A DNA stretch of 64,000 nucleotides from positions 30,042-94,041 of the forward strand of contig JBEKTO010000004.1 in NCBI GenBank assembly GCA_049515995.1. Reading direction: 5' to 3'. The notes below the pieces were generated by a model, which was not told the DNA's origin, ran no database searches, and saw nothing but the letters and a program-made list of their open reading frames with translations. Positions 1,559 to 60,160 of the stretch are shown piece by piece. Source of the DNA: Terracidiphilus sp. Lineage in GTDB: Bacteria; Acidobacteriota; Terriglobia; Terriglobales; Acidobacteriaceae. A program made the position numbers and the translations under genes. The first letter of the stretch is position 1; each line of letters begins with the position of its first letter.

Positions 1559-1574
1559 AACCCGACAAAGGCAA

Positions 1575-4052: not shown

Positions 4053-4057
4053 GCCAA

Positions 4058-4984: not shown

Positions 4985-5006
4985 GCCGCCGGCCCGGAGC
5001 CGCGCA

Positions 5007-5035
5007 GAAACACAGATTCACCGGTTCTGTGTTTC
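5007..5035. terminator. Hairpin after udg, possible terminator
   Basis: Perfect 10-bp stem GAAACACAGA/TCTGTGTTTC; weak U tract. Confidence 0.4.
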
Positions 5036-5608: not shown

Positions 5609-5738
5609 CGTAGGCACTTTCCAAAACAAACTCGCACGATGCGCCGGAGGCGAAGAATCGAGAGCCTGTACGGGACCGCGGAGGGTTCGCTCTCTGCGAC
5701 CTGAGCGATGCTCACTCCGCTGGTTCCGTTCCCCTCGC

Positions 5739-6497
5739 TCATCCGTCGAACCGCCATAACGCCACGCCGCCGAGCAGCCCGGTCTCATTCGGCACAATGC
5801 TGACGTCCTTGGGAAGTTCAACGTCGATCTTTTTGGTATTGCCGCCGCCGATGTAGAGGTGATCCCAGTTGAAGGTGGCCAGGGTCTGGGCAATCGCCTC
5901 CAGCAGCAGCTTGTTCCATTCCTTCTTGCCAAACTTGTCGAGGCCGCGGCGGCCGAGGTAGTCCTCGTAGGTCATGCCCTTCTTGCGCCAGGGGTGGTGG
6001 GCCAGCTCGAGGCCGGGGCAGAGGTGGCCGTCGGAGAAGAGCGAAGAGCCCATGCCAGTGCCCAGGGTGATCGCCATTTCAACGCCTTTGCCCTGGATGG
6101 CCCCATAGCCCTGCACGGCGGCGTCGTTGCAGACGCGCACCGGCTTCTTCCAGCGCAGTTCCAGTTCGCCCTGGAGCGGGAAACCCGCCCACTTGGGATT
6201 GAGATTGAAGGCTCCCAGGGTGACGCCGCGCTTGATGACGCCGGGGAAGCCGACCGAGACGCGGTCGAACTTGGGCAGCAGCCTGCGCAAATCGTCGAGG
6301 CCGTTGAGCACCAGCTCCGGGGTGGGCACGGCCGGGGTCGTTACGCGCTGGCGCTCGCTGACCGGCTTGCCTTCGGGGTCCAGCAGCATGGCCTTCAGCC
6401 CGGAACCGCCAATGTCGATGGAGAGGGTGACGGGCGAAAGGGCGGCGGAGGCGGCGCTGGGCGCAGGAAGAGCGGTCGAAGATGTCTTGGGTGTCAT
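5739..6497 (-). CDS. ROK family sugar kinase, polyphosphate glucokinase-like
   Basis: SIDIGGSGLK, VGFPGV, NDAAVQG, TLGTGMGS, LELAH, YIGGGN; start placed at ATG 6497. Confidence 0.85.
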   Translation of the reverse strand: MTPKTSSTALPAPSAASAALSPVTLSIDIGGSGLKAMLLDPEGKPVSERQRVTTPAVPTPELVLNGLDDLRRLLPKFDRVSVGFPGVIKRGVTLGAFNLNPKWAGFPLQGELELRWKKPVRVCNDAAVQGYGAIQGKGVEMAITLGTGMGSSLFSDGHLCPGLELAHHPWRKKGMTYEDYLGRRGLDKFGKKEWNKLLLEAIAQTLATFNWDHLYIGGGNTKKIDVELPKDVSIVPNETGLLGGVALWRFDG

Positions 6498-6664
6498 CAG
6501 CAGGAATTGTACTGCCTGCGGCCTGGTTTGCAAGGGGGACTGTGGAAGCTCCCGAAAAAGAGCATTTCCTTTGCCGGGACAACCGTCGCCCGCGTACGCG
6601 CGCCTGGAAGCAAGGATGCAGCCGGTCAACGTGGCCATGTAGAGACAAAGACGTATTTTGTCCC

Positions 6665-7114
6665 TTAAATATCCTGCTTGCCAGAGACGATCTTAAAGGT
6701 TACCTGGCCCCTGCGAAAGACGATCAACGCGTGCCCTGCGGAGGATGGGTAGCATTCTTCCTGGACCAACTGCCATCCAGATTCGGTCATGATATCCGAG
6801 TAAAAGGCGCATAGATCCTTCGCGGATCTCCCGAAAGCAATTGTTCTGGACGCGCGGCCCTTCTCCGGTTGGTATCCGGAAGTGAATCCTTGCTCGGTTG
6901 CGTCCGAGGGAAGGGGCAGCGACCTCAATTCCTGTACAACTTGATTCTGAAACCGGGCGGCCTGCGGATGAATGAGGTAGTCAAGCCCCATGATTCCGAA
7001 TCCGGCGAGGAGTGCAATGGCGCCGACGCGCCAAGGAAATCTTTCCCGCATCTTCTCCAACTGAATTGAAGGAAAACGCAAGTTTCGCAGGCTGCCGCTC
7101 TTTTCTTTCGACAT
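6665..7114 (-). CDS. Hypothetical protein with N-terminal membrane anchor
   Basis: Hydrophobic VGAIALLAGFGIMGLDYLI segment then globular region; start uncertain (7114 or 7051). Confidence 0.45.
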   Translation of the reverse strand: MSKEKSGSLRNLRFPSIQLEKMRERFPWRVGAIALLAGFGIMGLDYLIHPQAARFQNQVVQELRSLPLPSDATEQGFTSGYQPEKGRASRTIAFGRSAKDLCAFYSDIMTESGWQLVQEECYPSSAGHALIVFRRGQVTFKIVSGKQDI

Positions 7115-7483
7115 CCCTTTCTCCGTCGAAGGTTCGCCGGTCGCATGATAGCGATCTGGCCCGGTTTGGCAGTGGAGGCGAAACCTGAGGGGAAAAGCAG
7201 GTTCTTCGACTGCGCATGGCGCCCAGCCACCCAGCGACAAAGGCCTGCCGCCGGGGTCCCCGGCCACGCGCCCTCCTTCGCTCAAGATGAACGGGGCTTA
7301 TGCTGTGCGTTTCGCCGCGCCGCCTACGGGGCGCGGAATTGCTTTTGGCCTCTTTCCCAGGACTGCGCTTCGCTTGTCCTGGGCTATTTTCCTGCCGCCC
7401 CTCCGGGGCTGCTGTTGCGTGGCCGGTTCCTTCCCGGCCTACTCGCACCGCGCGTCCGTTGCTCGGGATAAACGGAGCCGGAT

Positions 7484-7537
7484 GAGGGTCGTGGCTTCCC
7501 ACCCTTTCGCCAGAAAGAAGACGAAAGGATGGGGCAC
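7484..7537 (-). repeat. REP-like palindromic element, intergenic
   Basis: Minus strand GTGCCCCATCCTTTCG...CGAAAGGGTGGGAAGCCACGACCCTC; 12-bp stem with 1 mismatch. Confidence 0.7.
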
Positions 7538-7731
7538 GGGGCAAAAATAAAGACGCCGCGATAGTGGGGCACGGGGCATTTTGAGAGATCGGAGCCGGTT
7601 CATTGCTGGCTGTAGCTCGGCGCGGCTTGTCTCGCTGCTCAAGATGACTGCTTTCTTTCGTTTTGCGATGGTTCGGCCCGGATCGATCATGAAGCGTCAC
7701 GTTCCATCGCCTACACTGAGTCTTGCCTCTC

Positions 7732-10314
7732 ATGCCCGCCTACTGCGAAGTCGCGCTGCCCGTCCCGCTGGATCGCGTATTCACCTACGCGGTGCGGGAG
7801 GGCCAGCTTCCGCAGCGGGGAGCGCGGGTGATTGCGCCCTTCCGCAACGAAAAGCTGATCGGGGTGGTGACCGCGCTGAGCGGTGAGGCGCCGGCGGATT
7901 TCGAGGCGCGGTATCTCGAGGCCGTGCTGGACGAGGAGCCGCTGCTGAGCGACCGTCTGCTGGAACTGGCCGAGTGGATGGCGCAGTACTATCTGGCGCC
8001 GCTGGGCGAGGTGCTGCGCGGGATGCTGCCGCTGATGGCCGAGGTGCGGCGGACGGTCTATTACCGGATCACCGATCTGGGACGGGATGTGCTGGCGGGG
8101 AGTGTGGATGGAGATTCCCAGGTCTCAACATCGAGACCTGGGGCACCCGGGAATCCGTGGGATTCCGCAGACTCCCAGGTCCGAAGATCCGGGCCTGGCG
8201 CACCCGGTCCTGGTTTCGGGGATCGAGGTGGCGCGAAACGGCGCGGGAAGCTCTCGGCCGAAGAGCAGGATATGGAGCACCGGGTGCTGATCCGGCTGGC
8301 GGAGGGCGAGCCGGTGAAGGTCTCGACCTTGCGCACGGCGACGGCGGCCACGCTGCCGGTGCTGGCCGGGCTGGTGCGCAAGAAATGGATTGCGCGCGAG
8401 ACGGCGGCCGTGGAGCGCGACGCGCGGCGCACGGAACGGTTTGCCGTGCTGATTCCCGAGGCGCGGTTGCCGGCGCTGACGCAGAAGCAGCAGGCGATTC
8501 TGGCCGAGCTGGCGGCCTGCGGCGGCGAACTGGCGCTGGCCGAACTGCGCAAGCGGGATTTGCCTTCCTCGACGCTGCAAACGCTGGTACGGCGCGGGCT
8601 GGTGCGGATCGAGGAGCGGGCGGCGGCCTTCCACCTGGGCGGATTGAAGCAGGATGCGGAGCCCTATCGGCTGAACGAGCCGCAGATGGAGGCGCTGGCC
8701 GCGCTGGTTCCGGCGCTGGGGGGATTCAAGCCCTTTTTACTGCACGGAGTGACCGGCTCGGGGAAGACGGCGGTTTATCTGGCGGCGATGCAGCGGGCGC
8801 TGGACAAAGGGCTGTCGTCGATCCTGCTGGTTCCGGAGATCGGGCTGACGCCGCAGACCGTGGGCCTGCTGGACGCGGCCTTCGGGCAGAAGGTGGCGCT
8901 GCTGCACTCCGCGCTGACGCCGGAGGAGCGCAGCGAGCAGTGGCGGCGCATCCGGCGGGGCGATGCGCCGATCGTGGTGGGCACGCGCTCGGCGATCTTT
9001 GCGCCGGCGCCCAATCTCGGATTGATCCTGGTAGACGAGGAGCACGACCAGAGCTACAAGCAGGAGGAGACGCCGCGCTACAACGCCCGCGACGTGGCCG
9101 TGATGCGGGCCAAGCTGGAGGGCGCGGTGGTGGTGATGGGCTCGGCCACGCCGTCGCTGGAGAGCTGGCAGAACTCGGCGCAAGGGAAGTACACGCGCAT
9201 CGAGATGAGCGACCGGGTGATGAACCGGCCGCTGCCCGCGGTGGAACTGGTGGACATGCGGCGCGAGTTCCAGGAGACCGGGCAGGACCAGCTCTTTTCG
9301 CGCGCGCTGGTGGAGCAGACGCGCGAGGCTCTGGATCGCGGCGAGCAGGCGCTGATCCTGCTCAACCGGCGCGGCTACTCGTTCGCCGTGATCTGCCGGG
9401 CCTGCGGCGAAAAGCTGGAATGCGAGAACTGCGCGATCTCGCTGACGCACCACAAGCCGCCGGCCGAGGACGCTGGCCTGGCGCGCGCGGGGCAGCGGCT
9501 GGAGTGCCACTATTGCGGCTACCAGCGGACGGTTCCGGCGCGCTGCCCGAAGTGCCAGAGCGAGCATCTCTACTATTTGGGCGCGGGCTCGGAGCAGGGC
9601 GAAGAGCGGCTGGCGGAGATTTTTCCCGGGGCCAGGATCGGCCGGATGGATCGCGATACGGTGCGCGGCCGGTACGACCTGGAACGGCTGCTGGCGCGGC
9701 TGCACTCGGGCGAGATCAACCTGCTGGTGGGCACGCAGATGATCGCCAAGGGCCACGACATTCACGGCGTCACGCTGGTGGGCGTGGTGGGCTGCGATCA
9801 CGCGCTCTCGATGCCCGATTTTCGCGCCGCCGAGCGGGTCTTTCAGTTGATGACGCAGGTCTCGGGCCGCGCCGGGCGGGGCGAGTTGCCGGGGCGCGTG
9901 GTGGTGCAGACTTACTACCCCGACCACTACGCGATTGTTGCCGCCAGCACTCACGACTACGCGAGCTTTGTGGAGCGGGAGTTGAAATACCGGCGCTGGA
10001 TGCATTACCCGCCCTTCGGCGTGCTGGCCAACGTGCTGGTGCAGTCGGCCAAGCTGGAAGAGGCGGCGGGGTGGTCGGCGGTGCTGGGCAAATATCTCGT
10101 CCAAAACCAGAACAGCGGAGCTGTGCGCGTGCTGGGACCCTGCACCGCGCCCATCGCCCGCATCAAGGGCACGTACCGCTTTCACATGATTCTCAAAGCT
10201 GGCTCGCGCAAAGCGCTCAATGCGGCGTTGCGCGGGATGCTGAGCCATGCCGATGCGGCCGGAGTGCCGCGGCGGAATCTGGTGGTGGATGTGGATGCGC
10301 TGCGGCTGATGTAA
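7732..10314 (+). CDS. priA: Primosomal protein N' (replication restart helicase)
   Basis: LHGVTGSGKT, LVPEIGLTPQ, VDEEHD, SATPS, LNRRGY, CxxC zinc motifs, GTQMIAKG. Confidence 0.96.
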   Translation: MPAYCEVALPVPLDRVFTYAVREGQLPQRGARVIAPFRNEKLIGVVTALSGEAPADFEARYLEAVLDEEPLLSDRLLELAEWMAQYYLAPLGEVLRGMLPLMAEVRRTVYYRITDLGRDVLAGSVDGDSQVSTSRPGAPGNPWDSADSQVRRSGPGAPGPGFGDRGGAKRRGKLSAEEQDMEHRVLIRLAEGEPVKVSTLRTATAATLPVLAGLVRKKWIARETAAVERDARRTERFAVLIPEARLPALTQKQQAILAELAACGGELALAELRKRDLPSSTLQTLVRRGLVRIEERAAAFHLGGLKQDAEPYRLNEPQMEALAALVPALGGFKPFLLHGVTGSGKTAVYLAAMQRALDKGLSSILLVPEIGLTPQTVGLLDAAFGQKVALLHSALTPEERSEQWRRIRRGDAPIVVGTRSAIFAPAPNLGLILVDEEHDQSYKQEETPRYNARDVAVMRAKLEGAVVVMGSATPSLESWQNSAQGKYTRIEMSDRVMNRPLPAVELVDMRREFQETGQDQLFSRALVEQTREALDRGEQALILLNRRGYSFAVICRACGEKLECENCAISLTHHKPPAEDAGLARAGQRLECHYCGYQRTVPARCPKCQSEHLYYLGAGSEQGEERLAEIFPGARIGRMDRDTVRGRYDLERLLARLHSGEINLLVGTQMIAKGHDIHGVTLVGVVGCDHALSMPDFRAAERVFQLMTQVSGRAGRGELPGRVVVQTYYPDHYAIVAASTHDYASFVERELKYRRWMHYPPFGVLANVLVQSAKLEEAAGWSAVLGKYLVQNQNSGAVRVLGPCTAPIARIKGTYRFHMILKAGSRKALNAALRGMLSHADAAGVPRRNLVVDVDALRLM
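8114..8206 (-). repeat. Two tandem REP-like palindromes inserted in frame in priA
   Basis: CCCAGGTCTC-N6-GAGACCTGGG-GCACCC at 8117 (perfect stem) and CCAGGTCCG-N6-CGGGCCTGG-CGCACCC 57 bp later. Confidence 0.75.
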
Positions 10315-47851: not shown

Positions 47852-49036
47852 TCAGCTGACCGCCGCGTGCTGACGGCTGACTACCGATTGCGGACTGCTG
47901 TCGGCGAGAACCTGCTCGTAATAGCGCACATAGTGCGGCACCACCAGCGAGGAGCAGAAGCGCTGCTGGGCGGTTTTGCGGCCGGCTTCGCGCATGGCTT
48001 CAAGGCGATTGCGATCCTTGAGCAGACCGATGGCTCCGGCGGCCATCGCGTCTACATCGCCCACCGGATAGAGCAGGCCGGTGACGCCATCGTCGATCAG
48101 CTCCGGCACGCCGCCGACGCGCGTGGCGATGGAGGGCACCTTGCAGGCCATGGCCTCGAGCGCGGCCAGGCCAAAGGACTCCAGCTCGCTCGGCATCAGC
48201 ATCAGATCGGCCAGCGGCAGCAGTTCGTTGACCCGATCCTGCTTGCCCATGAAGTGAATCCGGGCGTGAATTCCCAGGTCGTGCGCCAGCCACTCGGCGG
48301 CCGAGCGGTCGGGGCCGTCGCCCACCAGAACCAGTTGCGCGGGCACCTCGCGGGCCACCTGGGCGAAGACCTTGACCACATCGAGCACGCGCTTGACCGG
48401 GCGGAAATTAGAGAGATGCATCAGGATGGCCTCGTCCGGCCTGACCAGCTTGAGCCGCGCAGCCGCGCGGGCGGCCTCGTCCTTGATGGGCGTGTAGACA
48501 TCGCAGTTGACGAAGTTCGTCACCACTTCGATGCCCCGCGTGACGCCGAAATCCTCGATCGTTTTCTCTTTGAGATAGCTGGAGATGCTGGTGACCCCGT
48601 CGCTCTCCTGAATGGCGTAGCGGATGATGGGCAGATAGCTGCGGTCCAGGCCCACCAGCGTAATGTCGGTGCCGTGCAGGGTGGTGACGAAGGGCAGGCG
48701 CCGGCCGCGGGCCGCGAGCATCTGGCGGGCCAAGAGAGCGCTGACCGAGTGGGGAATGGCGTAGTGGACATGGAGCAGGTCGAGCTCGTAGAACTCGGCA
48801 ACCTCGGCCATGCGCGAGGCCAGCGCCAGATCGTAGGGGGGAAACTCGAAGAGCGGATAGCTGGAGACCGGGACCTCGTGATAAAAGATGCCGTCGTCGC
48901 GGCCGCTGAGGCGGAAGGGCTGGGAATAGGAGATGAAATGGACCTCGTGGCCCAGTGCAGCCAGTTCGATGCCCAGTTCCGTGGCCACCACACCGGAGCC
49001 GCCGTAGGTGGGATAACAGGTGATGCCGATGCGCAT
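47852..49036 (-). CDS. bshA: N-acetyl-alpha-D-glucosaminyl L-malate synthase
   Basis: [56 protein letters not shown]. Confidence 0.93.
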
Positions 49037-50101: not shown

Positions 50102-50178
<77 letters not shown>

Positions 50179-50190
50179 TGAACCTGTTTT

Positions 50191-50353
50191 AAGTCATCCA
50201 AAGACATCCAAGAGAATAGATAAATCCCCGGTAAACACTGGGGATTTCGTATTTCTACGTCCAAGGGCGTACTATCAAAGCCAAGTTCTGCGGGGGGTAC
50301 TTTCCGGGGTATTTAGTTTTTCAAGGGGGGTACTTTTCTCTGCGGGGGTATTT
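50191..50353 (+). promoter_or_regulatory. attL arm region: 10-bp tandem repeat, hairpin and four GGGG(G)TAYTT arm-type repeats
   Basis: AAG(T/A)CATCCA x2 at 50191-50210; AAATCCCC/GGGGATTT hairpin 50222-50247; repeats at 50293, 50305, 50326, 50344. Confidence 0.6.
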
Positions 50354-50366
50354 GAGGGGCGTTGAA

Positions 50367-51584
50367 ATGTCATTGACGGATACAGAGGTTCGCAGGTCCA
50401 AACCAACTGAGAAGGCGTATCGACTGAGCGATGGTGGAAGCCTGTACCTTTGGGTCACTCCAGCCGGTGGCAAGCTGTGGCGCTGGGCTTACAACCATGA
50501 CGGCAAAGAAAAGCTCATGTCCTTTGGCAAATACCCCGATGTGCCTCTGGCGCTGGCCAGAGAGCGCCACACTGAGGCTCGCAGGTTGCTTGCGGTGGGC
50601 ACCGATCCAATGGCACAGCGGAAGGCTGACAAGACCGCCGCAAAGAGTGCCTCCGAGAATTCCTTCCAGATGGTTGCGGGCCTTTGGTTCGATCACTGGC
50701 GGGTGGATAAGAGCCGCCAGCATGTGGACGCTACACGTCGGCGCATGGCTGCGAACATCTTTCCACTGCTAGGCGCGCGCCCGATTACGGAGATTGAAGC
50801 GCCGGAACTGGTGCTCATGGTCAAAGCGATAGAAGGACGCGGCGCGGCGGACCTGGCAAAGCGGGCGCTAGAGAACACGGGCCAGATATTTCGATTTGCC
50901 ATTGCGCATGGGTACGCGAAACGCAATCCGGCAAGCGAGATTCGCCCTGCTGACGTTCTAAGACCGACGCATAAAACCAATCTTGCCCGCATTGACGCAA
51001 AAGAGTTGCCGGACCTTCTACGCGCGATTGAGGTATACAGAGGGACGCATGTCACCCGCTTGGGATTGAAGCTGATGGCCCTCACTTTTGTGCGCACCAG
51101 CGAATTGATTGGAGCGAAGTGGACAGAGTTCGACATGGACGCTGCCCGGTGGGACATTCCCGCAGAGCGCATGAAGATGCGGACCCAGCACATTGTCCCT
51201 TTGGCCGCGCAAGCAATCGAAGTGCTGGAGATGCTGCGCACGTTGACCGGGGATAGTGAGTGGCTCTTCCCCGGTGATCGTAGCGCCGCAAAGCCCATGA
51301 GCAACAACACGATTCTGATGGCGCTTAAGCGCATGGGCTACAAAGGCAGAATGACGGGGCATGGCTTTCGCGGGCTGGCGTCCACTGTCTTGCATGAGAA
51401 GGGCTATGGGCATGAGCACATCGAATTGCAGCTTGCACACGCGCCGCGCAATGCCGTGAGCGCGGCCTATAACCATGCCTTGTACTTGGAACCGCGCGCC
51501 AAAATGATGCAGGATTGGGCGGATTTTCTAGAGCAAACTCTACGCGGTGGCAAGCTGATTCCGTTTCGCAGCCATGTAGCATGA
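50367..51584 (+). CDS. P4-family tyrosine integrase 1
   Basis: Arm-binding domain (DGGSLYLWV...GKLWRWAY...GKYPDVPLA.AR); catalytic R (RTSEL), HGFR, QLAH, AYN. Confidence 0.95.
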   Translation: MSLTDTEVRRSKPTEKAYRLSDGGSLYLWVTPAGGKLWRWAYNHDGKEKLMSFGKYPDVPLALARERHTEARRLLAVGTDPMAQRKADKTAAKSASENSFQMVAGLWFDHWRVDKSRQHVDATRRRMAANIFPLLGARPITEIEAPELVLMVKAIEGRGAADLAKRALENTGQIFRFAIAHGYAKRNPASEIRPADVLRPTHKTNLARIDAKELPDLLRAIEVYRGTHVTRLGLKLMALTFVRTSELIGAKWTEFDMDAARWDIPAERMKMRTQHIVPLAAQAIEVLEMLRTLTGDSEWLFPGDRSAAKPMSNNTILMALKRMGYKGRMTGHGFRGLASTVLHEKGYGHEHIELQLAHAPRNAVSAAYNHALYLEPRAKMMQDWADFLEQTLRGGKLIPFRSHVA

Positions 51585-51920
51585 AGCGCCGAACCGCTGC
51601 ATCGGCGGGCCGGTTACATTGATGGACTTGTGACGGAATCCAAGGTGACTGTGGGCAACTTCGGAGACGGCGCAGCCTTGCTCACCAGTTGCAACCAATT
51701 GCACAAGCGCACCACCTTGGCTTCCTTGGCACCAGCGACGGGGAGAGGTTTCAACCCGTGCCTGGCGGCGCGCTGTGCGGCATTTTGGCGTGGCGCTGCC
51801 GTTCCTCCATGCCGTCCCCAAAATCTCCGCAGACACCAAAACTTGCGCGGTTTTTCGACCTTGGAGCAGGTTGGAAATAGATGGACGGCATGAGCCTGTC
51901 CCATCACAGGAGAGAGTGCA

Positions 51921-52145
51921 TTGGACAATCTAGAGAAGATTATTCGTCTGCAAGCGGTCAAGGCGCGGTGTGGACTCAGTCGGAGCACGCTTTACAACCG
52001 GATGGCGGCGGGGGAGTTCCCGTCTCCAATATCACTCGGAGCGCGCTCAGTAGGCTGGGTGGAGTCTGAAATCAATGCTTGGATTGCAACTCGAATCAAT
52101 GCAAGTCGGAAGGCCATCCCGAACAAAGATGCAAAGGCTGCGTAA
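51921..52145 (+). CDS. alpA: AlpA family regulator / recombination directionality factor
   Basis: IRLQAVKARCGLSRSTLY..MAAGEFP.PISLG.RSVGW.ESEINAW. Confidence 0.9.
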   Translation: MDNLEKIIRLQAVKARCGLSRSTLYNRMAAGEFPSPISLGARSVGWVESEINAWIATRINASRKAIPNKDAKAA

Positions 52146-52293
52146 GCCCGAAGGGTCACCGTGGCACATGGAAGCGGCGTAGGGGCGCGAGGGAGGGTTA
52201 ACCTTCCTTGTGCATCCTAATTCGCTCCCGCAATGCACCAGCGCGGTTGTAGCCGCGCCGCGATACCCTTAACATAACTTTCAAGGATCGAAC

Positions 52294-53397
52294 ATGAGCG
52301 AATCGAATCCCGCCAATACAAAGCGGGCGCGCGGCGGAACGGGAAATTTCTTCATCGTTGACCAGAGGCTTTGGAAGGCAGTTTGCGATGAGGGCGACAT
52401 AAACGCCGCCGCCGCATGGCTACTGTTGTCGCAAGGGACGGGCGCGAACCAGCGCACGACCGCCTGGTCTGTAGATGCAATCATGCGTTACCTGGGCATG
52501 GGCTATAACCGTGGGAAAGAGGCAATCGACAAACTGATTGCCCTGAGATTCATTCGGTACGGCGAAAAGCACACGCAACGGAAGCCGCGCTATGACCTGC
52601 TTACATTCCCCGAATGGAACGCTCTGATTCACAAGCCCCGCAAGGGTAAGAGTGCAAGCGCGGAAGAGGACCCCGAAAACAACCTCATCTGGCTTCCCAA
52701 CGAACTTATCAAGGCAGCCGACGGCGAAAAACCGCCGATACGTAAGCTGCGGGCGTCTGGTGACCTTTGGGCTCTGCGCCTGTTCGTTGACCTCTACCAT
52801 GAGCACAACCTGAGAGATGACGGGGGAATCACCCGCAAGTTCTTGTGGCTAAAATATGACGCGATGAACCTCGGCGAGCGGGGACCGTACAGGATCATGG
52901 GCTTTAAGCCCGCCGGGAAATGGATAACTTGGGACGGTCCTTTCCGAATTCACCAGTCGCGACCGAAACTGAACCCCGACGCACAACCCACTTGGGATAG
53001 CTTGCATATCCTAGAGCAGACCGGCGTTCTGACGTTCATCCCGCATCTGGTGGAGAACGATACAAAGGCCGCCGAACCAATTCACGCGGTCGGAATCGGC
53101 GGACACAGTGAGCACCCCATCGAAACCCAAATCGGAAACGAGGCGCGCCGTACCGCAGTCGCCATGTGTCAACCCTGGCAGCTCGAACGGGCGCAACGGG
53201 ACGGATTGATTCTGTGTCCGGTAAGCCGGGATTACCCAAACGCTCAATTGGTCGGAATTGCCCGCTTGCATTACAGGCCGCATACGAAACGCACATCCGC
53301 CTGGAGCAGCAATCTGCAATATGCCGGACCTAAATGTGTTGACCATTTCCGACGCATGGCAGCCGAATATGCTGTGCAAGAGGCTGCATTCGCTTAA
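52294..53397 (+). CDS. Hypothetical protein, possible wHTH replication initiator
   Basis: N-terminal WSVDAIMRYLGMGYNRGKEAIDKLIALRFI resembles a wHTH; position after alpA. Function is inferred. Confidence 0.5.
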   Translation: MSESNPANTKRARGGTGNFFIVDQRLWKAVCDEGDINAAAAWLLLSQGTGANQRTTAWSVDAIMRYLGMGYNRGKEAIDKLIALRFIRYGEKHTQRKPRYDLLTFPEWNALIHKPRKGKSASAEEDPENNLIWLPNELIKAADGEKPPIRKLRASGDLWALRLFVDLYHEHNLRDDGGITRKFLWLKYDAMNLGERGPYRIMGFKPAGKWITWDGPFRIHQSRPKLNPDAQPTWDSLHILEQTGVLTFIPHLVENDTKAAEPIHAVGIGGHSEHPIETQIGNEARRTAVAMCQPWQLERAQRDGLILCPVSRDYPNAQLVGIARLHYRPHTKRTSAWSSNLQYAGPKCVDHFRRMAAEYAVQEAAFA

Positions 53398-53410
53398 ACG
53401 GGAGAGAGAC

Positions 53411-53460
53411 ATCAAAGGGGTTCAAGGATAGTTCAAAGAAGAAATCAAAGAGAATCAAAG
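53411..53460 (+). repeat. Five phased (A/T)TCAA(A/G)G repeats, iteron-like
   Basis: Copies at 53411, 53421, 53432, 53444, 53454 (10-12 bp spacing) just after the Rep-like stop. Confidence 0.6.
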
Positions 53461-53901
53461 CCTCTGTAAGCACAAATTCACCCCCAACCCCCTCAAGGGG
53501 GCTAGCGCAGAGGCAAGCTCTGCGCCGTTGGTTCGTAAACTGCTTTTCCTAAGATTGTCCGAACACGCTAAGCGCTTCACAATAGAGCTAACCCATGCTG
53601 CATCCAAGCGTCTGTTTCCCCGATTACTACGAACTCGCAAGCCGCTCAGTGCGGACGGCTGATGCGCCGCAATCCACCGCTAACGCCGCCCGCGCGGAAC
53701 GCCCGCGGCCGGATTTCCAGCGGATTGTGCTCCCGTCTGGCTGTGTACTTTTCCGGCTGCGTCTGCCGCGCGAAAAAGCATTCGGAATGAAGCCAAAATG
53801 CAGGCAGGCTGATTAGAGTCCCCCAGCCCCTTCATGACCAATCATGTTCCTTAAAGGGACCCGGCATTGTGCGCCCCAGTTTGCTGTTGCAGAATCAAAG
53901 T

Positions 53902-56900
53902 GTGCATCCTGTTGAGTCCTATCTCGTCAAACTGGCGGAAATTCGCGCGTCCGGTCATGCCACCGATGAAACGTCCTTCTATCCGGCGGTTGAGGGGCTG
54001 CTCTCGGAAATCGGCAAACGGCTCAAGCCGCGCGTCTCGCCTGTCCTGCAATTGAAGAATCGTGGCGCTGGCCTGCCAGACGGCGGCCTCTTCACACAGG
54101 ATCAACTCAAAAAGAACGCCGTGCCCGACGACTTCACCGTACAGCCGCCGAATCGCGGCGTGGTAGAGGTGAAGGGCCTCGCGGAAGAGACCGGTAAGAC
54201 TGCCCAATCCGAGCAGGTGAAGAAGTATCTGCGCGCCTACGGGCAAGTCCTGCTGACCAATTACCGGGAGTTTCGCGTGGTGGTGATGGGCAAGGACGAT
54301 AAGCCGCGCACCCTGGAGACCTTCACTCTGGCAAAGAGCGAAGCCGCATTCTGGGCGCTGGCTGCGCATCCGCACAAGACAGAAGGCGAAGTCGGCAAGA
54401 TGCTGGAGGAGTTTCTCACCCGCGCCCTGCTCAGTGCCGTGCCCATCACTTCGCCGGACGTGCTGGCCAGCTTTCTGGCTTCCTATGCCCGTGAGGCGCT
54501 GGCTAAGATCGAGCCGCGCTCTTCGCTCAAGGAACTGGAAGACGTGCGCAAGGCGCTGGAAGAGGCGCTCGGCCTCAAGTTTGAAAGCGATCTGGCTACG
54601 GAAAAAGAGAACAAGAAAGGCCAGCATTTCTTCCGCAGTACGCTGGTGCAAACGCTCTTCTATGGCCTGTTCTCCGCATGGGTGCTCTGGAGCCGTGAAC
54701 CGGGCCGCCGCAAGGGAGACAGCTTCGAGTGGAAGTCCGCTGTCTGGTCTCTTCAGGTTCCCATGATTCGCGCCCTCTTCGAGCGCCTGGTAACGCCGTC
54801 GCACGTTCGCTCCCTGGGTTTGGAAGAACTGCTCTCGCTCACCGGCGAAGTGCTGAACCGCGTGGATACCGCAGCTTTCTTCCAGCGATTTGAAGAAGAC
54901 ACCGCTGTCCAATACTTCTATGAGCCGTTTCTGGAGGCTTTCGACCCGGAACTGCGCAAGCAGCTTGGCGTCTGGTACACGCCACGCGAGATTGTGCGCT
55001 ACATGGTGGAGCGCGTGGACACGGTTCTGCGCACGGAACTGGGATTGCCCTCTGGCCTTGCCGACCCCAACGTTTACGTTCTCGATCCCGCCTGCGGCAC
55101 GGGCGCGTATCTGGTGGAGGTGCTGGACCGCATCCATCGGACGCTGAAAGAAGAGCGCGGCGAAGATGCGCTCACGCCGCACCAGCTCAAACAGGCGGCC
55201 AAAGAGCGCGTCTTCGGATTCGAGATTCTGCCCGCGCCTTACGTCATCGCGCACCTCCAGATTGGAATGTACCTGCAACGGGAGAAGGCACCGCTCCTTG
55301 AAGAACAGACCGGCAAGCGGGAGCGGGCTGGCGTGTATCTGACCAATGCGCTCACCGGTTGGGAGCCGCCTGACAAGCAAAAGGCGCAACTGCCCTTCGA
55401 GGAGTTTGAAGAGGAACGCGAGGAGGCCGATACCGTCAAGCGCGACAAGCCCATCCTGGTGGTGCTGGGCAATCCGCCGTACAACGCCTTCGCCGGAGTC
55501 AGTCCCACGGAAGAAGACGGGCTGGTAGAGCCCTACAAAGAGGGACTTATCACGGAATGGGGCATCAAGAAGTTCAATCTCGATGACCTCTATATCCGTT
55601 TCTTCCGTCTGGCCGAAAGGCGCATCGCGGAGAAGAGCCATCGCGGCGTGGTCTGCTTCATCTCCAATTTTTCCTATCTCAGCGAGCCATCTTATGTGGT
55701 CATGCGCAAGCGGCTTCTCAATGGCTTCGATGCGCTTTGGTTTGACTGTTTGAATGGCGATAGCCGGGAGACGGGAAAGCTGACGCCAGAGGGCAAACCA
55801 GACCCCAGTGTCTTTTCTACGGAGAGCAACCGCGAAGGAATTCGCGTGGGAACCGCCATCGGCCTGATGATTCGCCGGAATAAGGCGAAGGGCGATTCTT
55901 CTGTGCATTATCGCGAGCTTTGGGGAACGCGCAAACGCGAAGAGCTTGTCGAGAGCTTGGAAGATACTGCGCTCGAAGGCCGATACGCGAACGCCGCGCC
56001 GACTCATGCCAATCGTTTCTCTTTTCAGCCCCAAGAGGTGAGCGCCGCATACAGCGAATGGCTAAAGATCACTGAGCTATGCGCGGAATCTCCCAGCAAC
56101 GGCCTGATGGAAAAGCGCGGGGGTGCGCTGATTGACATCGACCGCGAAAAGCTGGAAGAGCGGATGCGCCTCTACCATGACAAGAGCCTGGACTGGGATG
56201 CCTACCGGCTGGCATCGTCCACCCTCACCGGCGATTGGTCAGGGTTCGATGCGCGCAAGTTGCGTGCGCGGGCGCTGGACGCGGGATTCCAGATCAGCCA
56301 GATTGTCCGCTATGCTGTGCGCCCTTTCGATACGCGCTGGTGTTATTTCTCAGACATTCCGTCAATCTGGAATCGGTCGCGCCCTGCTCTGTGGGCGCAG
56401 TGCTTTGAGGGGAATTCGTTCCTGCTGACGCGGATGCGTTGTACGGCATCTCCAGAGGGTTTCCCTATCAGTTTCAGCAAGTGCCTTTCGGATGACCATT
56501 ACATTATCCCCGATGCTGTAGCCGTCCCGTTTCTTTTGCAGCATCCGGCCACCAGCATGTTTGCCAGTGAGCAGACTGACGGCAACCTCTCCCAATTGGC
56601 CAGCGATTACCTGCGCAGTCTGAAACTGGGTAACAGCCCGGCGAGCGCCGCGTCCCTTTGGCTGCACACGCTCGCCATCGGCCACAGCCCCGCCTATCTG
56701 GAAGAGAACGCCGACGGCATCCGGCAGGATTGGCCGCGCATTCCGCTGCCGTCTTCGTTGGACCAGTTCAACGCATCGGCGGCGCTGGGGCAGGGTGTGG
56801 CGGATTTGCTGGACACGGAAAACCCTGTAGCGGGCGTGACGGCGGGCGCGCTGCGGCCCGAGTTGCGCTCTGTTGCCGGACTGAAGCGCATGGACGGCAA

Positions 56901-57378
56901 GCCGCTGAACGCAGAAGAAGATTTGCAACTCACGGCAGGCTGGGGACACGCCGGAAAAGAAGGCGTGACCATGCCGGGACGCGGCAAGCTGGTAAGCCGT
57001 GAGCGGACGGCGAAGGAACTCGCCGATCTGGCGCAAGGGCTGGCGGCGCTGGGCATCGAGCAGGATGAAGGCTTGGCGCGTCTGGGCAGTACGGTGGTGG
57101 ATGTGTACTTGAACGACCTCTGCGCATGGACGAACGTGCCGGAAATGGTATGGGAAATCTACATCGGCGGCTATCAGGTGATGAAGAAATGGCTCAGTTA
57201 CCGGGAGTACAGCTTTCTGAAACGACCGCTGGCGTTGGCCGAAGCCGAAGAGGTGCAGGCAATGGCAAGGCGGCTTACCGCCCTCTGTCTTCTCCAGCCG
57301 GAACTCGACGCGAATTACCTCAAAGTGAAGAGCGCATCCTGGCAGGGGCAGCCCGCTCTTCAATCTGCTCAATCGTAG
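53902..57378 (+). CDS. Single-chain restriction-modification enzyme (N6-adenine MTase + type ISP-like specificity domain), no helicase
   Basis: PDG...VEVK nuclease-like N-terminus; GVWYTP, VLDPACGTGAYL, GNPPY; RYAVRPFD, WPRIP, GYQVMKKWL.YR. Confidence 0.85.
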   Translation: MHPVESYLVKLAEIRASGHATDETSFYPAVEGLLSEIGKRLKPRVSPVLQLKNRGAGLPDGGLFTQDQLKKNAVPDDFTVQPPNRGVVEVKGLAEETGKTAQSEQVKKYLRAYGQVLLTNYREFRVVVMGKDDKPRTLETFTLAKSEAAFWALAAHPHKTEGEVGKMLEEFLTRALLSAVPITSPDVLASFLASYAREALAKIEPRSSLKELEDVRKALEEALGLKFESDLATEKENKKGQHFFRSTLVQTLFYGLFSAWVLWSREPGRRKGDSFEWKSAVWSLQVPMIRALFERLVTPSHVRSLGLEELLSLTGEVLNRVDTAAFFQRFEEDTAVQYFYEPFLEAFDPELRKQLGVWYTPREIVRYMVERVDTVLRTELGLPSGLADPNVYVLDPACGTGAYLVEVLDRIHRTLKEERGEDALTPHQLKQAAKERVFGFEILPAPYVIAHLQIGMYLQREKAPLLEEQTGKRERAGVYLTNALTGWEPPDKQKAQLPFEEFEEEREEADTVKRDKPILVVLGNPPYNAFAGVSPTEEDGLVEPYKEGLITEWGIKKFNLDDLYIRFFRLAERRIAEKSHRGVVCFISNFSYLSEPSYVVMRKRLLNGFDALWFDCLNGDSRETGKLTPEGKPDPSVFSTESNREGIRVGTAIGLMIRRNKAKGDSSVHYRELWGTRKREELVESLEDTALEGRYANAAPTHANRFSFQPQEVSAAYSEWLKITELCAESPSNGLMEKRGGALIDIDREKLEERMRLYHDKSLDWDAYRLASSTLTGDWSGFDARKLRARALDAGFQISQIVRYAVRPFDTRWCYFSDIPSIWNRSRPALWAQCFEGNSFLLTRMRCTASPEGFPISFSKCLSDDHYIIPDAVAVPFLLQHPATSMFASEQTDGNLSQLASDYLRSLKLGNSPASAASLWLHTLAIGHSPAYLEENADGIRQDWPRIPLPSSLDQFNASAALGQGVADLLDTENPVAGVTAGALRPELRSVAGLKRMDGKPLNAEEDLQLTAGWGHAGKEGVTMPGRGKLVSRERTAKELADLAQGLAALGIEQDEGLARLGSTVVDVYLNDLCAWTNVPEMVWEIYIGGYQVMKKWLSYREYSFLKRPLALAEAEEVQAMARRLTALCLLQPELDANYLKVKSASWQGQPALQSAQS

Positions 57379-57408
57379 GCTTCCGAAAGAGCGGATGAAC
57401 TGCCCGCC

Positions 57409-57936
57409 CTAGTTTGCTGGTGGCTGCCCATCCGGGGCCGCGTTCTTGACCATCTGCGGCGCATCCGTTCCGGGGGTAGCAGACAGATGCCGGGCCACTG
57501 GAGCCGCGCCCGGCTTTGCGCGATGGCCGCGCCTCCGCTTCACAGGAACAGGCTGCGGCGGCACTCCAGGCACGCTCACAGCCGCTGGGGGCGTTGCGGG
57601 CGGGGTAGCGGGATGGGGAGAGAATAGAGCAGTGAGAAACAGCACAAGCAACCCACCAGCAATGAATGCCACTGTCAGGGCCGGGCCATTTCCCGCGCGT
57701 TGCTGCGAAGGCGCGCCGGAGGCGGGAGCCGCATCCCCGCCAGCCGTCGTGCCCTTACCCGCGTATGTCCGGCTGTAAAGGCCCGTACCGGGGATGGAAG
57801 CCGCCGCGTACGATCTGCCCTTTGCATCGGTGCCGACCCGAAAGCCGCGCACACCGATGGAAGTTCCTATGCCGGACTTGGACAGGTTCAACCTGAGTGG
57901 TCCAAGTTTGATGCTTTTACGAAATCGCCATGCCAT
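57409..57936 (-). CDS. DUF4236 domain membrane protein
   Basis: MAWRFRKSIKLGPLRLNLSKSGIGTSIG...SIPGTGLYS, TM helix, Pro/Ala tail. Confidence 0.8.
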   Translation of the reverse strand: MAWRFRKSIKLGPLRLNLSKSGIGTSIGVRGFRVGTDAKGRSYAAASIPGTGLYSRTYAGKGTTAGGDAAPASGAPSQQRAGNGPALTVAFIAGGLLVLFLTALFSPHPATPPATPPAAVSVPGVPPQPVPVKRRRGHRAKPGAAPVARHLSATPGTDAPQMVKNAAPDGQPPAN

Positions 57937-58070
57937 GTCCCCGCAATTCTACCCCCACCAGCACGCCGCCATTGGCTCTAAGTCGTTTCCAGAGTAATCG
58001 GGCGAACTTTCTAATCCTGGACATATCCCGCCTTTTGCTTTGAGCCGGTTGTGCAGCGAAATTTGCGCGT

Positions 58071-58092
58071 GGGGGCCAATATGGGGGCCAAT
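58071..58092 (+). repeat. 12-bp direct repeat GGGGGCCAAT(AT) x2 abutting the integrase 2 start
   Basis: Copies at 58071 and 58083; related GGGGACAAAAT-GGGGCCGAT at 59650-59669. Confidence 0.6.
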
Positions 58093-59284
58093 GGAGGTAG
58101 TGAACCTCACAGACAAACAACTCGCCTCGCTGAAACCGAAACAGGCCCGCTATTCGGTCCATGACGGGAGCGGCCTCTATGTGGAGGTCTGGCCCAGCGG
58201 TGTGAAGAGTTGGAGGGTCCGCTATTTGCAGAATGGGCACCGCCGCCGAATCAATCTAGGGCGCTATCCCGGTTTGAGTTTGGCCGGCGCACGGGGCAAG
58301 CGAAATGAACTGACAGAGGTAATCCGTGCTGGTAGCTCTCCGGCGGAGGAGCGGCGAAAGCAGAAACAGGAAATGCTGCGCGATCTCACGGTGAAGGATT
58401 TTGGCGAGCGGTATCTGCGCGAAGTAGTGATGCAGGCGCGCAAGGATGCTGCTCCCATGCGCCGGTATCTGGAGCGGAACGTGTACCCGGTCATCGGTGG
58501 AATGGCGGTTTCCATGGTGCACACAGAGCATGTGCGCGACCTCGTGTTTGCAATTCGGGATGCCGGACACGGGCAAGCGGCGGTAGCGGTCCGCAACCTG
58601 CTGAAACGGGTCTGGGATTATGCGCTTGCGTGTGGGATGGTAGCGGACAATCCGGCCCGTGCAACGCCGGTCAAGTTCATTTCGATTGCGAAGGCCCGGA
58701 ACAGAGCCTTGAATGAGACTGAGACCGGTATGTTTCTCCGCAGATTGGACGCCGCTTCGCTGCGGCCTCTGCTGCAAACCGCTCTGCGGCTGCTTCTGTT
58801 GACGCTCACCCGAAAATCGGAGGTACGCCTGGCACGCTGGGAACACATCGACTTTGAGCGCGGGGAGTGGGAGATTCCACCAGAGCATTCAAAGACCGGC
58901 ACAGGGCAGATAGTGTATTTGTCGCGTCAAGCATCGGCGTTGCTGGAGCGATTGCGGCCATCGGCGGAGCGTGTGGGCTATTTGTTCCCTGCATTGGGCA
59001 GCGATGGCAGTTCACCGATTGGGCGAAGCACGCTCAACCGCGCCTTGGAACGCGCACAACGCGGCATGGCGCATTTCACTGTGCATGATCTGCGGCGGAC
59101 TGGTGCCACCCGGTTAAGCGAGATGGGATACAACCCGGATTGGATTGAGAAGGCCCTGAACCATAAACTGCGCGGTGTGCGTGGAATCTACAACCGGGCC
59201 GAATACGGACCCCAACGCCGCAAGATGCTCCAAGAATGGGCAGACAGCCTGGACTCTTTGCAGCATACCGCTAAGGCAGCCTAG
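58091..59284 (+). CDS. P4-family tyrosine integrase 2
   Basis: DGSGLYVEV...VKSWRVRY...LGRYP.LSLA.AR; R (RKSEV), HDLRRT, ALNH, IYN all intact. Confidence 0.93.
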   Translation: MEVVNLTDKQLASLKPKQARYSVHDGSGLYVEVWPSGVKSWRVRYLQNGHRRRINLGRYPGLSLAGARGKRNELTEVIRAGSSPAEERRKQKQEMLRDLTVKDFGERYLREVVMQARKDAAPMRRYLERNVYPVIGGMAVSMVHTEHVRDLVFAIRDAGHGQAAVAVRNLLKRVWDYALACGMVADNPARATPVKFISIAKARNRALNETETGMFLRRLDAASLRPLLQTALRLLLLTLTRKSEVRLARWEHIDFERGEWEIPPEHSKTGTGQIVYLSRQASALLERLRPSAERVGYLFPALGSDGSSPIGRSTLNRALERAQRGMAHFTVHDLRRTGATRLSEMGYNPDWIEKALNHKLRGVRGIYNRAEYGPQRRKMLQEWADSLDSLQHTAKAA

Positions 59285-59347
59285 ACGGGCCGGGTTCGCG
59301 GGCGCTGTAGCAAAGGAAAAAGGGGTCTCAGTGTCGCCAGAGCGAGC

Positions 59348-59535
59348 GGGTCCTTCCCCGTCTGTGCGCGCTACGGGTGACGCGCCACCCCACCTCCGCC
59401 CTAGCGCCAGAGATTTTTGACCCGAGTTCCGTTTCCGCATTTCTTTGTTTCATTTTCCGATCATGTACTTGATTTCTTGGCGCTTGTGCGAAAAGTGGAG
59501 TCGGAACATACGGAACTGACAGCCCCTTTTCCGTT
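59348..59535 (+). other. Candidate lambda-like cos packaging site
   Basis: GGGTCCT, TACGGGTG-N6-CACCC dyad, AGTTCCGT/ACGGAACT inverted pair with an IHF-like site between them, third TTTCCGTT. Confidence 0.5.
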
Positions 59536-59691
59536 TACGGGAGACAGATTATCGCCGGTTCCTCGCTAGTGTGCCTCTAGCGCCGAAGAATTGGCGGCTT
59601 TCACAGCCCCAAAGGCGTGCCGTGCGAGAATTCTGGTAGAAGTGGGCACGGGGACAAAATGGGGCCGATTCACCCCTAGCGCAGCTTTGGC

Positions 59692-59779
59692 GGGGGTACT
59701 TTTGGGGGTATTCCTTGGAGGTTCATTTTCAAGCTGCTGAAAATGCGTAGTTTATGGCATGATTCGAGTCCCTCACTGC
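59692..59779 (+). promoter_or_regulatory. attR arm repeats and core
   Basis: GGGGGTACTTTT-GGGGGTATT (59692-59712); CATTTTCA/TGAAAATG dyad (59724-59745); core 59763-59779. Confidence 0.8.
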
Positions 59780-59809
59780 GCCGGGGTGGCAGTAGAAGTT
59801 TGACATTTG

Positions 59810-59838
59810 CGGGAGTCGTCCCCGTTTTGTTTTTTTTT
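59810..59838 (+). terminator. Short hairpin with long U tract downstream of attR
   Basis: CGGGA-GTCG-TCCCCG followed by TTTTGTTTTTTTTT. Confidence 0.5.
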
Positions 59839-59884
59839 ACCTTCTTCCGGCAAACACGTTGGATGGGCGCGGAGCATGAGCGCC

Positions 59885-59970
59885 GTCCCTACGGGACTCC
59901 GGCTGAATGGTTGGTTTCGCCAACCCCACGCTGAAGCGCGGGGCTAACAACCACTGCGCCTACGGCGCGG
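59885..59970 (+). repeat. Composite REP-like element
   Basis: GTCCC-TAC-GGGAC, CCCCACGCTGAAGCGCGGGG and CCACTGCGCCTACGGCGCG. Confidence 0.6.
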
Positions 59971-60160
59971 TCGACTGGCTGCTGCCGACGCCCTGGCCAA
60001 GTCGCAGTGCGTCGTACCTACGGCGCGGGCGACGGGCTACTGCTGACGCCCTGGCCAAGTCGCAGTGCGTCGTACCTACAGCGCGGGCGACGGGCTGCTG
60101 CTGACGCCCTGGCCAAGTCGCAGTGCGTCGTACCTACAGCGCGGGCGACGGGCTGCTGCC
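59959..60160 (+). repeat. 58-bp tandem repeat, about 3.5 copies
   Basis: Unit GACGCCCTGGCCAAGTCGCAGTGCGTCGTACCTAC(G/A)GCGCGGGCGACGGGCT(A/G)CTGC(T/C) at 59987, 60045, 60103. Confidence 0.92.

Follow-up and report, generated by a model that had tools for sequence, protein, structure and literature searches.

A candidate minimal, cosmid-like phage satellite carrying a Type IIG restriction-modification enzyme at a tRNA-Val gene of Terracidiphilus

Phage satellites have been characterised mainly in Proteobacteria and Firmicutes. The element considered here, a unit at positions 50156-59779 of a 64,000-nucleotide stretch of a Terracidiphilus sp. genome (contig JBEKTO010000004.1; the whole stretch is referred to below as the window), lies in a member of the Acidobacteriota, a phylum that is dominant and hard to cultivate in soil and peat. 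We judge it rather probable that this unit is an integrated, helper-dependent, minimal cosmid-like phage satellite, which would most likely spread by being packed into helper-phage capsids along with its restriction-enzyme cargo. Three groups of described satellites stand closest to it. Among the Gram-negative cos-type phage-inducible chromosomal islands (PICIs), EcCICFT073 carries int, alpA, pri-rep and cos, has no genes for capsid remodelling and goes into heads of full size (PMC6092414). The PICMIs possess three core genes and are packaged as concatemers (PMC10803314), and the P4-like satellites of phage P2 form a hotspot of defence genes (PMC9122126).

The island runs from a first integrase, int1, through AlpA, p367 (a putative replication initiator), phased iterons, a Type IIG restriction-modification (RM) enzyme, a DUF4236 protein and a second integrase, int2, to a 495-bp non-coding stretch that ends at attR, and all genes lie on the + strand except DUF4236 (Table 1). 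This order had been proposed in a first-pass annotation of the window and agreed with the family scans, as did the accompanying statement that capsid, tail, terminase, conjugation and relaxase genes are absent: none of the open reading frames (ORFs) tested in the island matched capsid, tail, terminase, portal, relaxase or type IV secretion system (T4SS) families, and neither Nu1, gpA or portal similarity nor terminase or portal remnants were present in the island or the 64-kb window. The island is devoid of lysis genes as well.

Table 1. Features of the island and its target gene, with window positions
Feature	Position	Strand	Basis or remark
tRNA-Val(TAC), integration target	50102-50178	+	ARAGORN; Rfam tRNA 73.7 bits
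attL core, 17-bp direct repeat TTCGAGTCCCTCACTGC	50156-50172	+	spans tRNA T-loop and acceptor stem
Terminator-like hairpin, island-borne, behind rebuilt tRNA	50222-50247	+	
Arm-type repeats GGGGTACTTT...GGGGTATT, two copies, predicted attP P' arm	50294-50352	+	just upstream of int1
int1, P4-type tyrosine integrase	50352-51584	+	Arm-DNA-bind_3, Phage_int_M, Phage_integrase (Pfam); likely ATG 50367
AlpA-family regulator or excision factor	51921-52145	+	PF05930 4e-19; PHROG excisionase/regulator
p367, 367-aa multi-winged-helix protein, putative replication initiator	52294-53397	+	AlphaFold (AF2) fold
Five phased iterons (A/T)TCAA(A/G)G, putative origin	53412-53460	+	spacing 10-12 bp
C-rich motif ACCCCCAACCCCCTCAAGGGGGCT and 8-bp-stem hairpin GCGCAGAG-N5-CTCTGCGC	53480-53525	+	nearly invariant
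Conserved small ORF MLHPS...DFQRIVLPSGCVLFRL	53595-53816	+	in seven elements
Single-chain Type IIG RM enzyme, 1169 aa, cargo	53869-57378	+	PADLOC, N6_Mtase, Type_ISP_C
DUF4236 protein	57409-57936	-	match 1.5e-22
int2, second P4-type integrase	58040-59284	+	31% identical to int1
Predicted lambda-type cos site	59348-59545	+	phage-contig homology, lambda comparison, motif statistics
cosQ GGGTCCT	59348-59354	+	
cosN-like 14/16 palindrome GGGTGACGCGCCACCC	59375-59390	+	
R3-like TTCCGTTTCC	59427-59436	+	
Inverted R2-like motif	59502-59516		
R1-like motif	59529-59539		
Arm-type repeat GGGGTACTTTTGGGGGTATT, predicted attP P arm	59693-59712	+	one copy, 50 bp left of attR core
attR core, second 17-bp repeat copy TTCGAGTCCCTCACTGC	59763-59779	+	chromosomal flank restarts at 59780

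Like the cos-type PICIs (EcCICFT073; PMC6092414, PMC6739421, PMC9026076), the window carries a small island with an integrase at one end (int1 next to attL), a specific att site (the 17-bp repeats) and alpA downstream of int in the same orientation. Both combine a replication gene (a putative one in the Terracidiphilus island) and, behind it, an iteron-type origin with accessory or defence genes and with lambda-type cosQ and cosN, the helper-recognised cos being predicted here from homology and motif architecture, and both are without capsid, tail and terminase genes and without capsid-size remodelling, a likeness that would imply multimers in full-size heads. In place of the Pri-Rep primase-helicase and its origin, however, the window has an unrelated 367-aa winged-helix protein and iterons that are analogous and non-homologous; no Rpp, TerS or capsid morphogenesis gene accompanies the cis-acting cos, whose cosB (R3-type) matches that of the putative helper and is not island-specific; a second, helper-like integrase stands beside the cos; and the host phylum is Acidobacteriota. 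With the PICMIs of Vibrionaceae (PMC10803314) the window shares Int, AlpA, one (here putative) replication protein, defence cargo and the absence of capsid remodelling and of evident helper interference, and concatemer packaging, which was shown for PICMIs, is proposed for the window. PICMIs, however, are defined by Int, AlpA and Prim beside fis and depend on virulent phages, whereas the Terracidiphilus island lies at a tRNA-Val gene, has no primase and an unrelated putative replication protein, and carries a recognisable lambda-type cos.

P4-like satellites resemble the window in their P4-type integrase, AlpA/Vis-type regulator, helper-identical cos, size of ~10 kb and variable defence-gene slot near integrase and cos. 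Only int and alpA of their core were found, however, and since alpha primase-helicase, Sid, Psu, Delta and Epsilon are all absent, the island has no genes for a small-capsid programme or helper transactivation. The island scans likewise contained neither the capsid, portal, protease and connector genes of cf-PICIs nor the relaxase and T4SS of integrative mobilisable elements (IMEs) and integrative conjugative elements (ICEs). As these defining features fail, the island was not filed in PICI, P4-like or PICMI, and the PICI or P4-like membership put forward in the first-pass annotation had to be given up (no Pri-Rep or alpha primase, Rpp, TerS, Sid, Psu or Delta); on these comparisons the island is best called a member of a new, minimal, cos-type satellite family.

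The exact 17-mer TTCGAGTCCCTCACTGC occurs twice in the window, 9607 bp apart from start to start and at the tRNA-Val gene, as had been noticed at the outset, and this gene is the sole tRNA found in the 64 kb by ARAGORN. No third att copy within 3 mismatches was present in the window (chance expectation for such matches, 0.24 per window), which ruled out two tandem islands split by a third copy. The GC content of the island (~0.57-0.60) is 5-8 points lower than that of its flanks (~0.65), and the 3' end of the tRNA is rebuilt by the island. Through a conserved neighbouring gene, 80 Terracidiphilus/Acidobacteriaceae loci were retrieved, and the tRNA-Val locus was conserved in ~70 genomes. The suggested comparison with related genomes for an empty attB was borne out by a related Terracidiphilus metagenome-assembled genome (L041), in which the right flank of the window (59780-59982) restarts 54 nt past tRNA-Val, so that its site is essentially empty. 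Sequence comparison thus marks the unit as a discrete insertion at the 3' end of tRNA-Val.

The evidence for packaging comes from the non-coding block downstream of int2. A pattern from this conserved block, GGGTGACGCGCNACCYC, led to IMG/VR contigs with which the block is 75-86% identical, the adjoining upstream integrase there being only ~52% identical in amino acids (aa). Directly downstream of the block, these phage contigs encode a Nu1-like small terminase (HTH_17 and Phage_Nu1), the large terminase gpA (GpA_ATPase 3e-81, GpA_nuclease 9e-78) and a lambda-family portal. A stricter cosQ-palindrome motif, GGGTCCTTCC-N15-20-GGGTGACGCGC, was present in 66 viral contigs; among the 52 with >1.5 kb downstream, gpA lay within 3 kb on the same strand in 47 and a Nu1-like gene started 93-118 nt past the motif in 40, and an int2-like integrase (48-66% aa) ended <=600 nt upstream of the cos in 22 of the 49 with >1.6 kb upstream. 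p367 was found in none of the motif-bearing viral contigs. The homology shared with the phages stops exactly between the R3-type site and the phage terS start codon. A blastn search of 59285-59779 against the GenBank phage collection gave no match, and phage relatives were found only in IMG/VR.

Comparison with lambda (NC_001416) extended this likeness to the individual sites. The heptamer GGGTCCT was read from the record at 48473-48479, the position of cosQ according to Wieczorek and Feiss, and it is identical to the heptamer at 59348-59354. The distance from the start of cosQ to that of cosN is 30 nt in lambda (to the left cohesive end) and 27 nt in the window (to GGGTGACGCGCCACCC), and the first CGTTTCC lies at bp 53 (R3) and bp 56, respectively. 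Later R sites are found in lambda inverted at ~bp 113 (R2) and forward at bp 155 (R1), and in the window as TTCCGTWT inverted at ~bp 134 and forward at bp 155, so that the forward, inverted, forward order is that of lambda cosB. TTCCGTWT has one further occurrence in the 64-kb window, and the cosQ...CGTTTCC combination is expected 0.03 times per window. The published order of cosB is R3-I1-R2-R1 with R2 inverted and R3 at bp 50-65, N15 has R3 only, and the 7-bp cosQ is highly conserved (PMC9026076, PMC4669245). The putative helpers have, like N15, a single R3 just ahead of the terS start. In contrast, the cosN sequence differs (GGGTGACGCGCC... vs GGGCGGCGACCT, cos of lambda-like phages) and no IHF (integration host factor) site was identified. 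Homology and motif architecture together support the block as a lambda-type cos that a helper terminase would recognise, and on paper the island resembles a laboratory cosmid, a natural cosmid as it were.

The cos-like cis region of the first-pass annotation thus gained a phage counterpart, being homologous to the segment upstream of Nu1-like and gpA genes with the lambda cosQ-cosN-R3 motifs and spacing, and lost part of its extent: 59348-59545 is read as cos and 59693-59762 as attP arm. A reading of 59284-59762 as attP P arm throughout was dropped for 59348-59545 in view of the phage terminase-proximal homology, and kept for 59693-59762.

The cos block belongs to a backbone that recurs at other tRNA genes. 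Orthologues of p367 (69-80% aa) and of int2 (72-79% aa) occur together in L001, L002-4, L008 and L106 with differing genes between them: an MmeI-type RM enzyme and a TIR protein in L002 and L008, an N6-methyltransferase in L106 and hardly anything in L001. At the nucleotide level, homology to the window is confined to three blocks (52285-53771, 57999-59253 and 59316-59459). Such relatives are bounded on one side by a tRNA-Met gene and on the other, ~10 kb away, by a 45-47-nt repeat of the 3' half of that gene, with another integrase and an HTH_17 gene at the tRNA-proximal end; the window contains no tRNA-Met fragment. Since p367, iterons, small ORF, cargo, int2 and cos block persist at other tRNAs (tRNA-Met or tRNA-Ser, with different cargo), they were taken as the backbone, and the exchangeable integration module appears to hold the same position in the circular map. 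A supposed small terminase in the tRNA-Met relatives (a 229-aa ORF after the cos in L106) was rejected, its N-terminus being a spurious read-through of the cos and its C-terminal 115 aa an HTH_17 excisionase-type domain unrelated to the phage Nu1-like proteins.

The integration module has a distribution of its own. int1 homologues (60-94% aa) adjoin tRNA-Val in seven genomes (L018, L022, L027, L030, L055, L062 and L070), none of which contains p367 or int2, and L018 is 90% identical to the window in nucleotides through int1 into alpA and then diverges. At a tRNA-Ser gene, the 6.2-kb element L104 carries an int1 homologue (78-79%), AlpA (92%), the same arm repeats at both ends and a 13-bp core, GAATCCCTCTCCC. 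Because copies of the GGGGTACTTT..GGGGTATT repeats flank both sides, they were taken to be integrase arm sites around attP. By these comparisons int1, with a ratio of nonsynonymous to synonymous substitution rates (dN/dS) of 0.10, is identified as the tRNA-Val integrase, with a predicted specificity for tRNA-Val/Ser, and int1, AlpA and the attP arms as the tRNA-Val integration module. The element had been described as a single minimal unit; it is better described as two modules, int1, AlpA and attP arms on the one hand and int2 travelling with the cos on the other.

int2 is assigned by the same comparisons to the backbone and related to the integrase that precedes the cos in the putative helper phages, and it probably came with the cos from a helper-like phage. 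Its dN/dS of 0.11-0.15 indicates purifying selection, yet it seems dispensable in L104, where only its last 92 codons are left. At present it may serve a second integration target or multimer resolution.

The main rival explanation, which we regard as unlikely, is that of an ordinary tRNA-linked defence island bearing a functionless lambda-like prophage-end fossil (int2 and cos) and moving rarely or never. Two integrases within one unit and an int-cos synteny that is the same as in phage contigs would both be expected of such a fossil, and so would the decaying variants, the metagenome contigs without sign of excision or amplification and the lack of a satellite-specific interference gene that are described below. 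It is difficult to reconcile, however, with the retention of int2-cos together with p367 and its iterons, across a cargo region that has turned over, in six or more independent elements located at three tRNA genes, or with a cos that is better conserved than the adjacent integrase (75-86% in nucleotides vs ~52% in aa). The cos outlasts the loss of int2 in L104, where the block is intact and 89% identical, and its separation from int2 by three inserted ORFs in L001. Moreover, as the cut lies exactly between R3 and the Nu1 start, all cis sites were kept with no terminase coding sequence left.

p367 is the other constant part of the backbone, and is probably a replication initiator. It gave no match in Pfam, PHROG, NCBIfam or PADLOC, has no primase or helicase domain, and each of its 93 homologues is hypothetical or unannotated; its profile found nothing below E 0.05 among PDB sequences, and tblastn against the GenBank phage collection returned no match. 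Its AlphaFold model is confident (predicted local distance difference test score 89, predicted template-modelling (TM) score 0.86), with a winged helix as its N-terminal part, yet it resembles no known structure closely. Foldseek returned winged-helix matches and a weak similarity to RepE54 (TM 0.43-0.45, prob 0.7), and there were weak fold matches to viral "helix-turn-helix" or "replication initiator" proteins with E from 7e-4, a phage "replication initiator" being at E 5e-3. A dN/dS of 0.11-0.18 points to purifying selection on p367.

Directly behind the gene, TCAANG repeats start at 53412, 53422, 53433, 53445 and 53455, five copies being seen in the window vs 0.08 expected per 60 nt. In 12 of 12 relatives examined, an (A/T/G)TCAANG array of 4-7 copies in 10-11-bp phase lies 3' of the p367 stop codon, and it is kept even in p367 relatives that are only 33-47% identical and whose surrounding DNA is otherwise unalignable. 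Distant homologues of p367 are found upstream of a DnaB-like helicase (L098) and on viral contigs with terminase, portal or head genes (L094 and L096). The iteron linkage, the homologues on phage contigs and the dN/dS were given more weight than the fold matches, and p367 likely represents an uncharacterised, confidently folded family that initiates replication. The Rep-like gene of the first-pass annotation was thus upheld in its tie to an iteron array throughout the family and in its distant relatives in phage replication modules, and not in any membership of a known initiator family by sequence.

The N-terminal half of p367 also has a distant homologue on an 8580-bp circular Citrobacter sequence (L010, NZ_CP056897.1). 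Filed as a plasmid, this record has genes for a major capsid protein, a tail assembly protein and a tyrosine integrase, and resembles a miniature phage, or a satellite with its own capsid gene, in excised form.

An integrase and p367 are the only genes common to ten complete elements that are bounded by repeats and spread over six tRNA species. Their Pfam cargo includes Type I-like RM, methyltransferase, Fic, Sel1, Kelch and glycosyltransferase proteins, and no virion or conjugation genes were seen among it; their size range of 7.3-10.7 kb was not used as evidence, being biased by a 10-kb flank limit. This breadth would suit an integrative plasmid-like episome, consisting of int1/AlpA and p367/iterons, with no dedicated horizontal transfer and an incidental cos: nothing but the integration and replication modules is universal in the wider p367 family, its distant members do not have this cos, and a p367 homologue occurs on plasmids. 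We nevertheless think such an episome quite improbable, as the arguments for selection on the cos apply to it in the same way as to the fossil, and the single-copy depth in metagenomes argues against free replication in situ.

Between the iterons and the cargo, all close relatives share, in nearly invariant form, the motif CACCCCCAACCCCCTCAAGGGGGCT with a hairpin behind it; its candidate roles are those of a site for single-strand initiation, of a regulatory RNA and of a binding site. The same motif with a different hairpin was observed at the end of an unrelated 12.8-kb viral contig (L185, 12616-12680). Its conservation might also be taken for an oriT, in which case the island would be an IME or ICE hitcher that depends on conjugation in trans, and the T4SS set with its own integrase directly beside the element in L002-L004 would fit this. 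We hold this explanation very improbable: relaxase, coupling protein and T4SS genes were found in 0 of 10 complete elements (scanned ORFs), the T4SS neighbour is located beyond the direct repeats and was seen in a single genomic context, and the conserved phage cos would be left unexplained. In L002 itself, a set of TrbC, VirB3, VirB4, CagX, TrbI, TrbL and VirB8 with its own integrase (342-9708) abuts the distal repeat, which suggests tandem accretion of an ICE and a small element at one tRNA.

The small ORF that follows (53595-53816) had no family match in the library scans; in the nucleotide alignment of the elements its synonymous changes are visible.

The cargo enzyme has the layout of a Type IIG enzyme in a single polypeptide, with an N-terminal nuclease region, a gamma-class N6-adenine methyltransferase and a C-terminal specificity domain. 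It was matched by the PADLOC model REase_MTase_IIG (3e-90 and 4.5e-78, together covering residues 89-977), by Type_ISP_C (3e-32) and by N6_Mtase. An 81%-identical copy fills the corresponding slot in L134, an element with a p367 of only 40% identity, and DUF4236 adjoins int2 in L106 as it does in the window. Four metagenomes carry the island in nearly identical form, but in three of them stretches of the RM gene between 55709 and 56462 were missing or too divergent at 95% identity; clusters of single-nucleotide polymorphisms flank this gap, which begins upstream of the Type_ISP_C specificity domain and extends into it. Part of the enzyme, and possibly its specificity, thus seems to have diversified among strains.

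Populations were followed in Logan contigs of ten metagenomes and two metatranscriptomes. In several metagenomes of peat and wetland (2017-2025) the island was present in integrated form, with a depth on the level of its flanks, and metatranscriptome contigs touched int1, p367, the RM gene and DUF4236 at very low depth. The phage contigs with the closest cos also come from peat, including two runs that hold words of the island. A sigma-70 promoter scan returned no sites.

Several observations weigh against an active satellite. The depth of the island equals that of its flanks in X1-X4, and neither the circular joint (59762 to 50173) nor the empty-site joint nor an excess in copy number was seen in the contigs of the ten metagenomes and two metatranscriptomes, although contigs cannot show rare forms and this absence is thus weak evidence. 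Some copies appear to be decaying: variants (~90-92% identical) in the peat runs X10 and X11 have a 325-nt deletion in int1 (50444-50770), and that of X10 also a 469-nt deletion in int2 (58504-58973) with 12 nt inserted and the cos-to-attR stretch kept. In the contig L109, which is otherwise 99.9% identical to the window (tRNA-Val, int1, alpA, p367), a foreign insert (3966-6416) follows p367 codon 240 (window 53014/53015) and encodes a 462-aa ORF, the N-terminus of which resembles, by eye, an IS5/IS1182-type transposase. Interference or redirection genes (Rpp, Ccm, Sid, TerS) were not found in the scans of the island ORFs, so that specific packaging would depend solely on the cos site, and no helper prophage lies in the 64-kb window. 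p367, moreover, has no recognisable relative among characterised initiators (fold matches at E >= 7e-4 and TM <= 0.47), and its more distant family members are without this cos type. Set against the cos and backbone data, these points leave the original proposal, a helper-dependent, cos-type satellite without morphogenesis genes and with defence cargo, supported in silico at the strength given at the outset.

A life cycle for such a satellite can be proposed, in which infection by a helper, or its induction, would switch on AlpA, and int1 would excise a circle through the 17-bp core. p367 would then bind the iterons, and replication with host or helper enzymes would give concatemers with one cos per 9.6 kb. 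The helper TerS would bind the R3-type site and the helper gpA would nick cosN, packaging continuing until a cosQ-cosN is reached in a nearly full head, which for a 38-41-kb helper would mean ~four units in one normal capsid. In a new cell, the cohesive ends would anneal and int1 would insert one unit into tRNA-Val, and the RM cargo would repay the host through restriction of other phages. Among the viral contigs with this cos, the lengths of the longer ones group around 38-41 kb. The first-pass annotation had likened five units to a headful of ~48 kb, which found no support; four units would fit the 38-41-kb contigs, a match that is equally speculative.

A wider proposal, which seems to us evenly balanced, is that Acidobacteriota of soil and peat harbour a widespread and so far undescribed family of minimal "natural cosmids", 6-10 kb in length, to which the island would belong. 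Members would consist only of a swappable tRNA-integration module, a novel initiator with iterons, a defence slot and the complete cosQ-cosN-R3 of lambda-like phages that occur alongside them. Without any protein for redirection or interference, they would travel in unmodified helper capsids as concatemers of ~four units, cos and neighbouring integrase having been captured directly from the helper lineage. If true, this would be the first satellite system in Acidobacteriota, and a full-text search for "Acidobacteri" and "phage satellite" together had a review on giant viruses and jumbo phages as its sole match. It would also mean that a cis site and replication suffice for satellite life, the minimal requirements being integration, a single initiator with its iterons and a helper cos but no protein acting on the helper, and would offer a testable route by which RM, TIR and other defence genes move in soil and peat communities. 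The lambda cos grammar (cosQ GGGTCCT, cosN spacing and CGTTTCC R site) is conserved from enterobacterial to peat and soil phages, and two markers become available for finding such elements in metagenomes, namely p367 with TCAANG iterons and the cos motif with no terminase after it.

Some further features of the putative helper type were observed. L188 and L206 carry a gene for the beta subunit (sliding clamp) of DNA polymerase III upstream of integrase and cos, L188 (the only one scanned for it) also has a C5 cytosine methyltransferase there, and a tRNA-Arg(TCT) gene lies near the integrase end in L188 and L190.

At the right end of the island, the junction itself appears to have been remodelled. 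The rest of the tRNA 3' end (CCACCA) does not come next to the attR core of the window, a 27-nt insertion, CAAAGGGTGAGGAGATCCTCCGGCTTT, directly follows the core in two metagenomes (59779/59780), and in L041 the tRNA and the shared flank are separated by 54 additional nt. To the right of attR, at 59809-59825, lies the terminator-like hairpin that was originally the chromosomal one. An Rfam scan of the island matched the tRNA alone, with a sub-threshold Acido-Lenti-1 match outside the island. The latter, just right of attR, scored 36 bits vs a gathering score of 37 and is followed by a 58-bp tandem repeat (three overlapping 85-nt copies, 93-100% identical); the word depth of this stretch (59924-60159) in metagenomes was 500-1900x vs ~10-30x for its neighbours, and it was thus taken to be a widely repeated or shared element. 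In other Terracidiphilus genomes (L025, L049 and L076) tRNA-Val is accompanied by a partial copy of 45-47 nt, which in L025 and L049 is ~8.4 kb away from the intact gene, and these appear to be different islands at the same hotspot with a longer core repeat.

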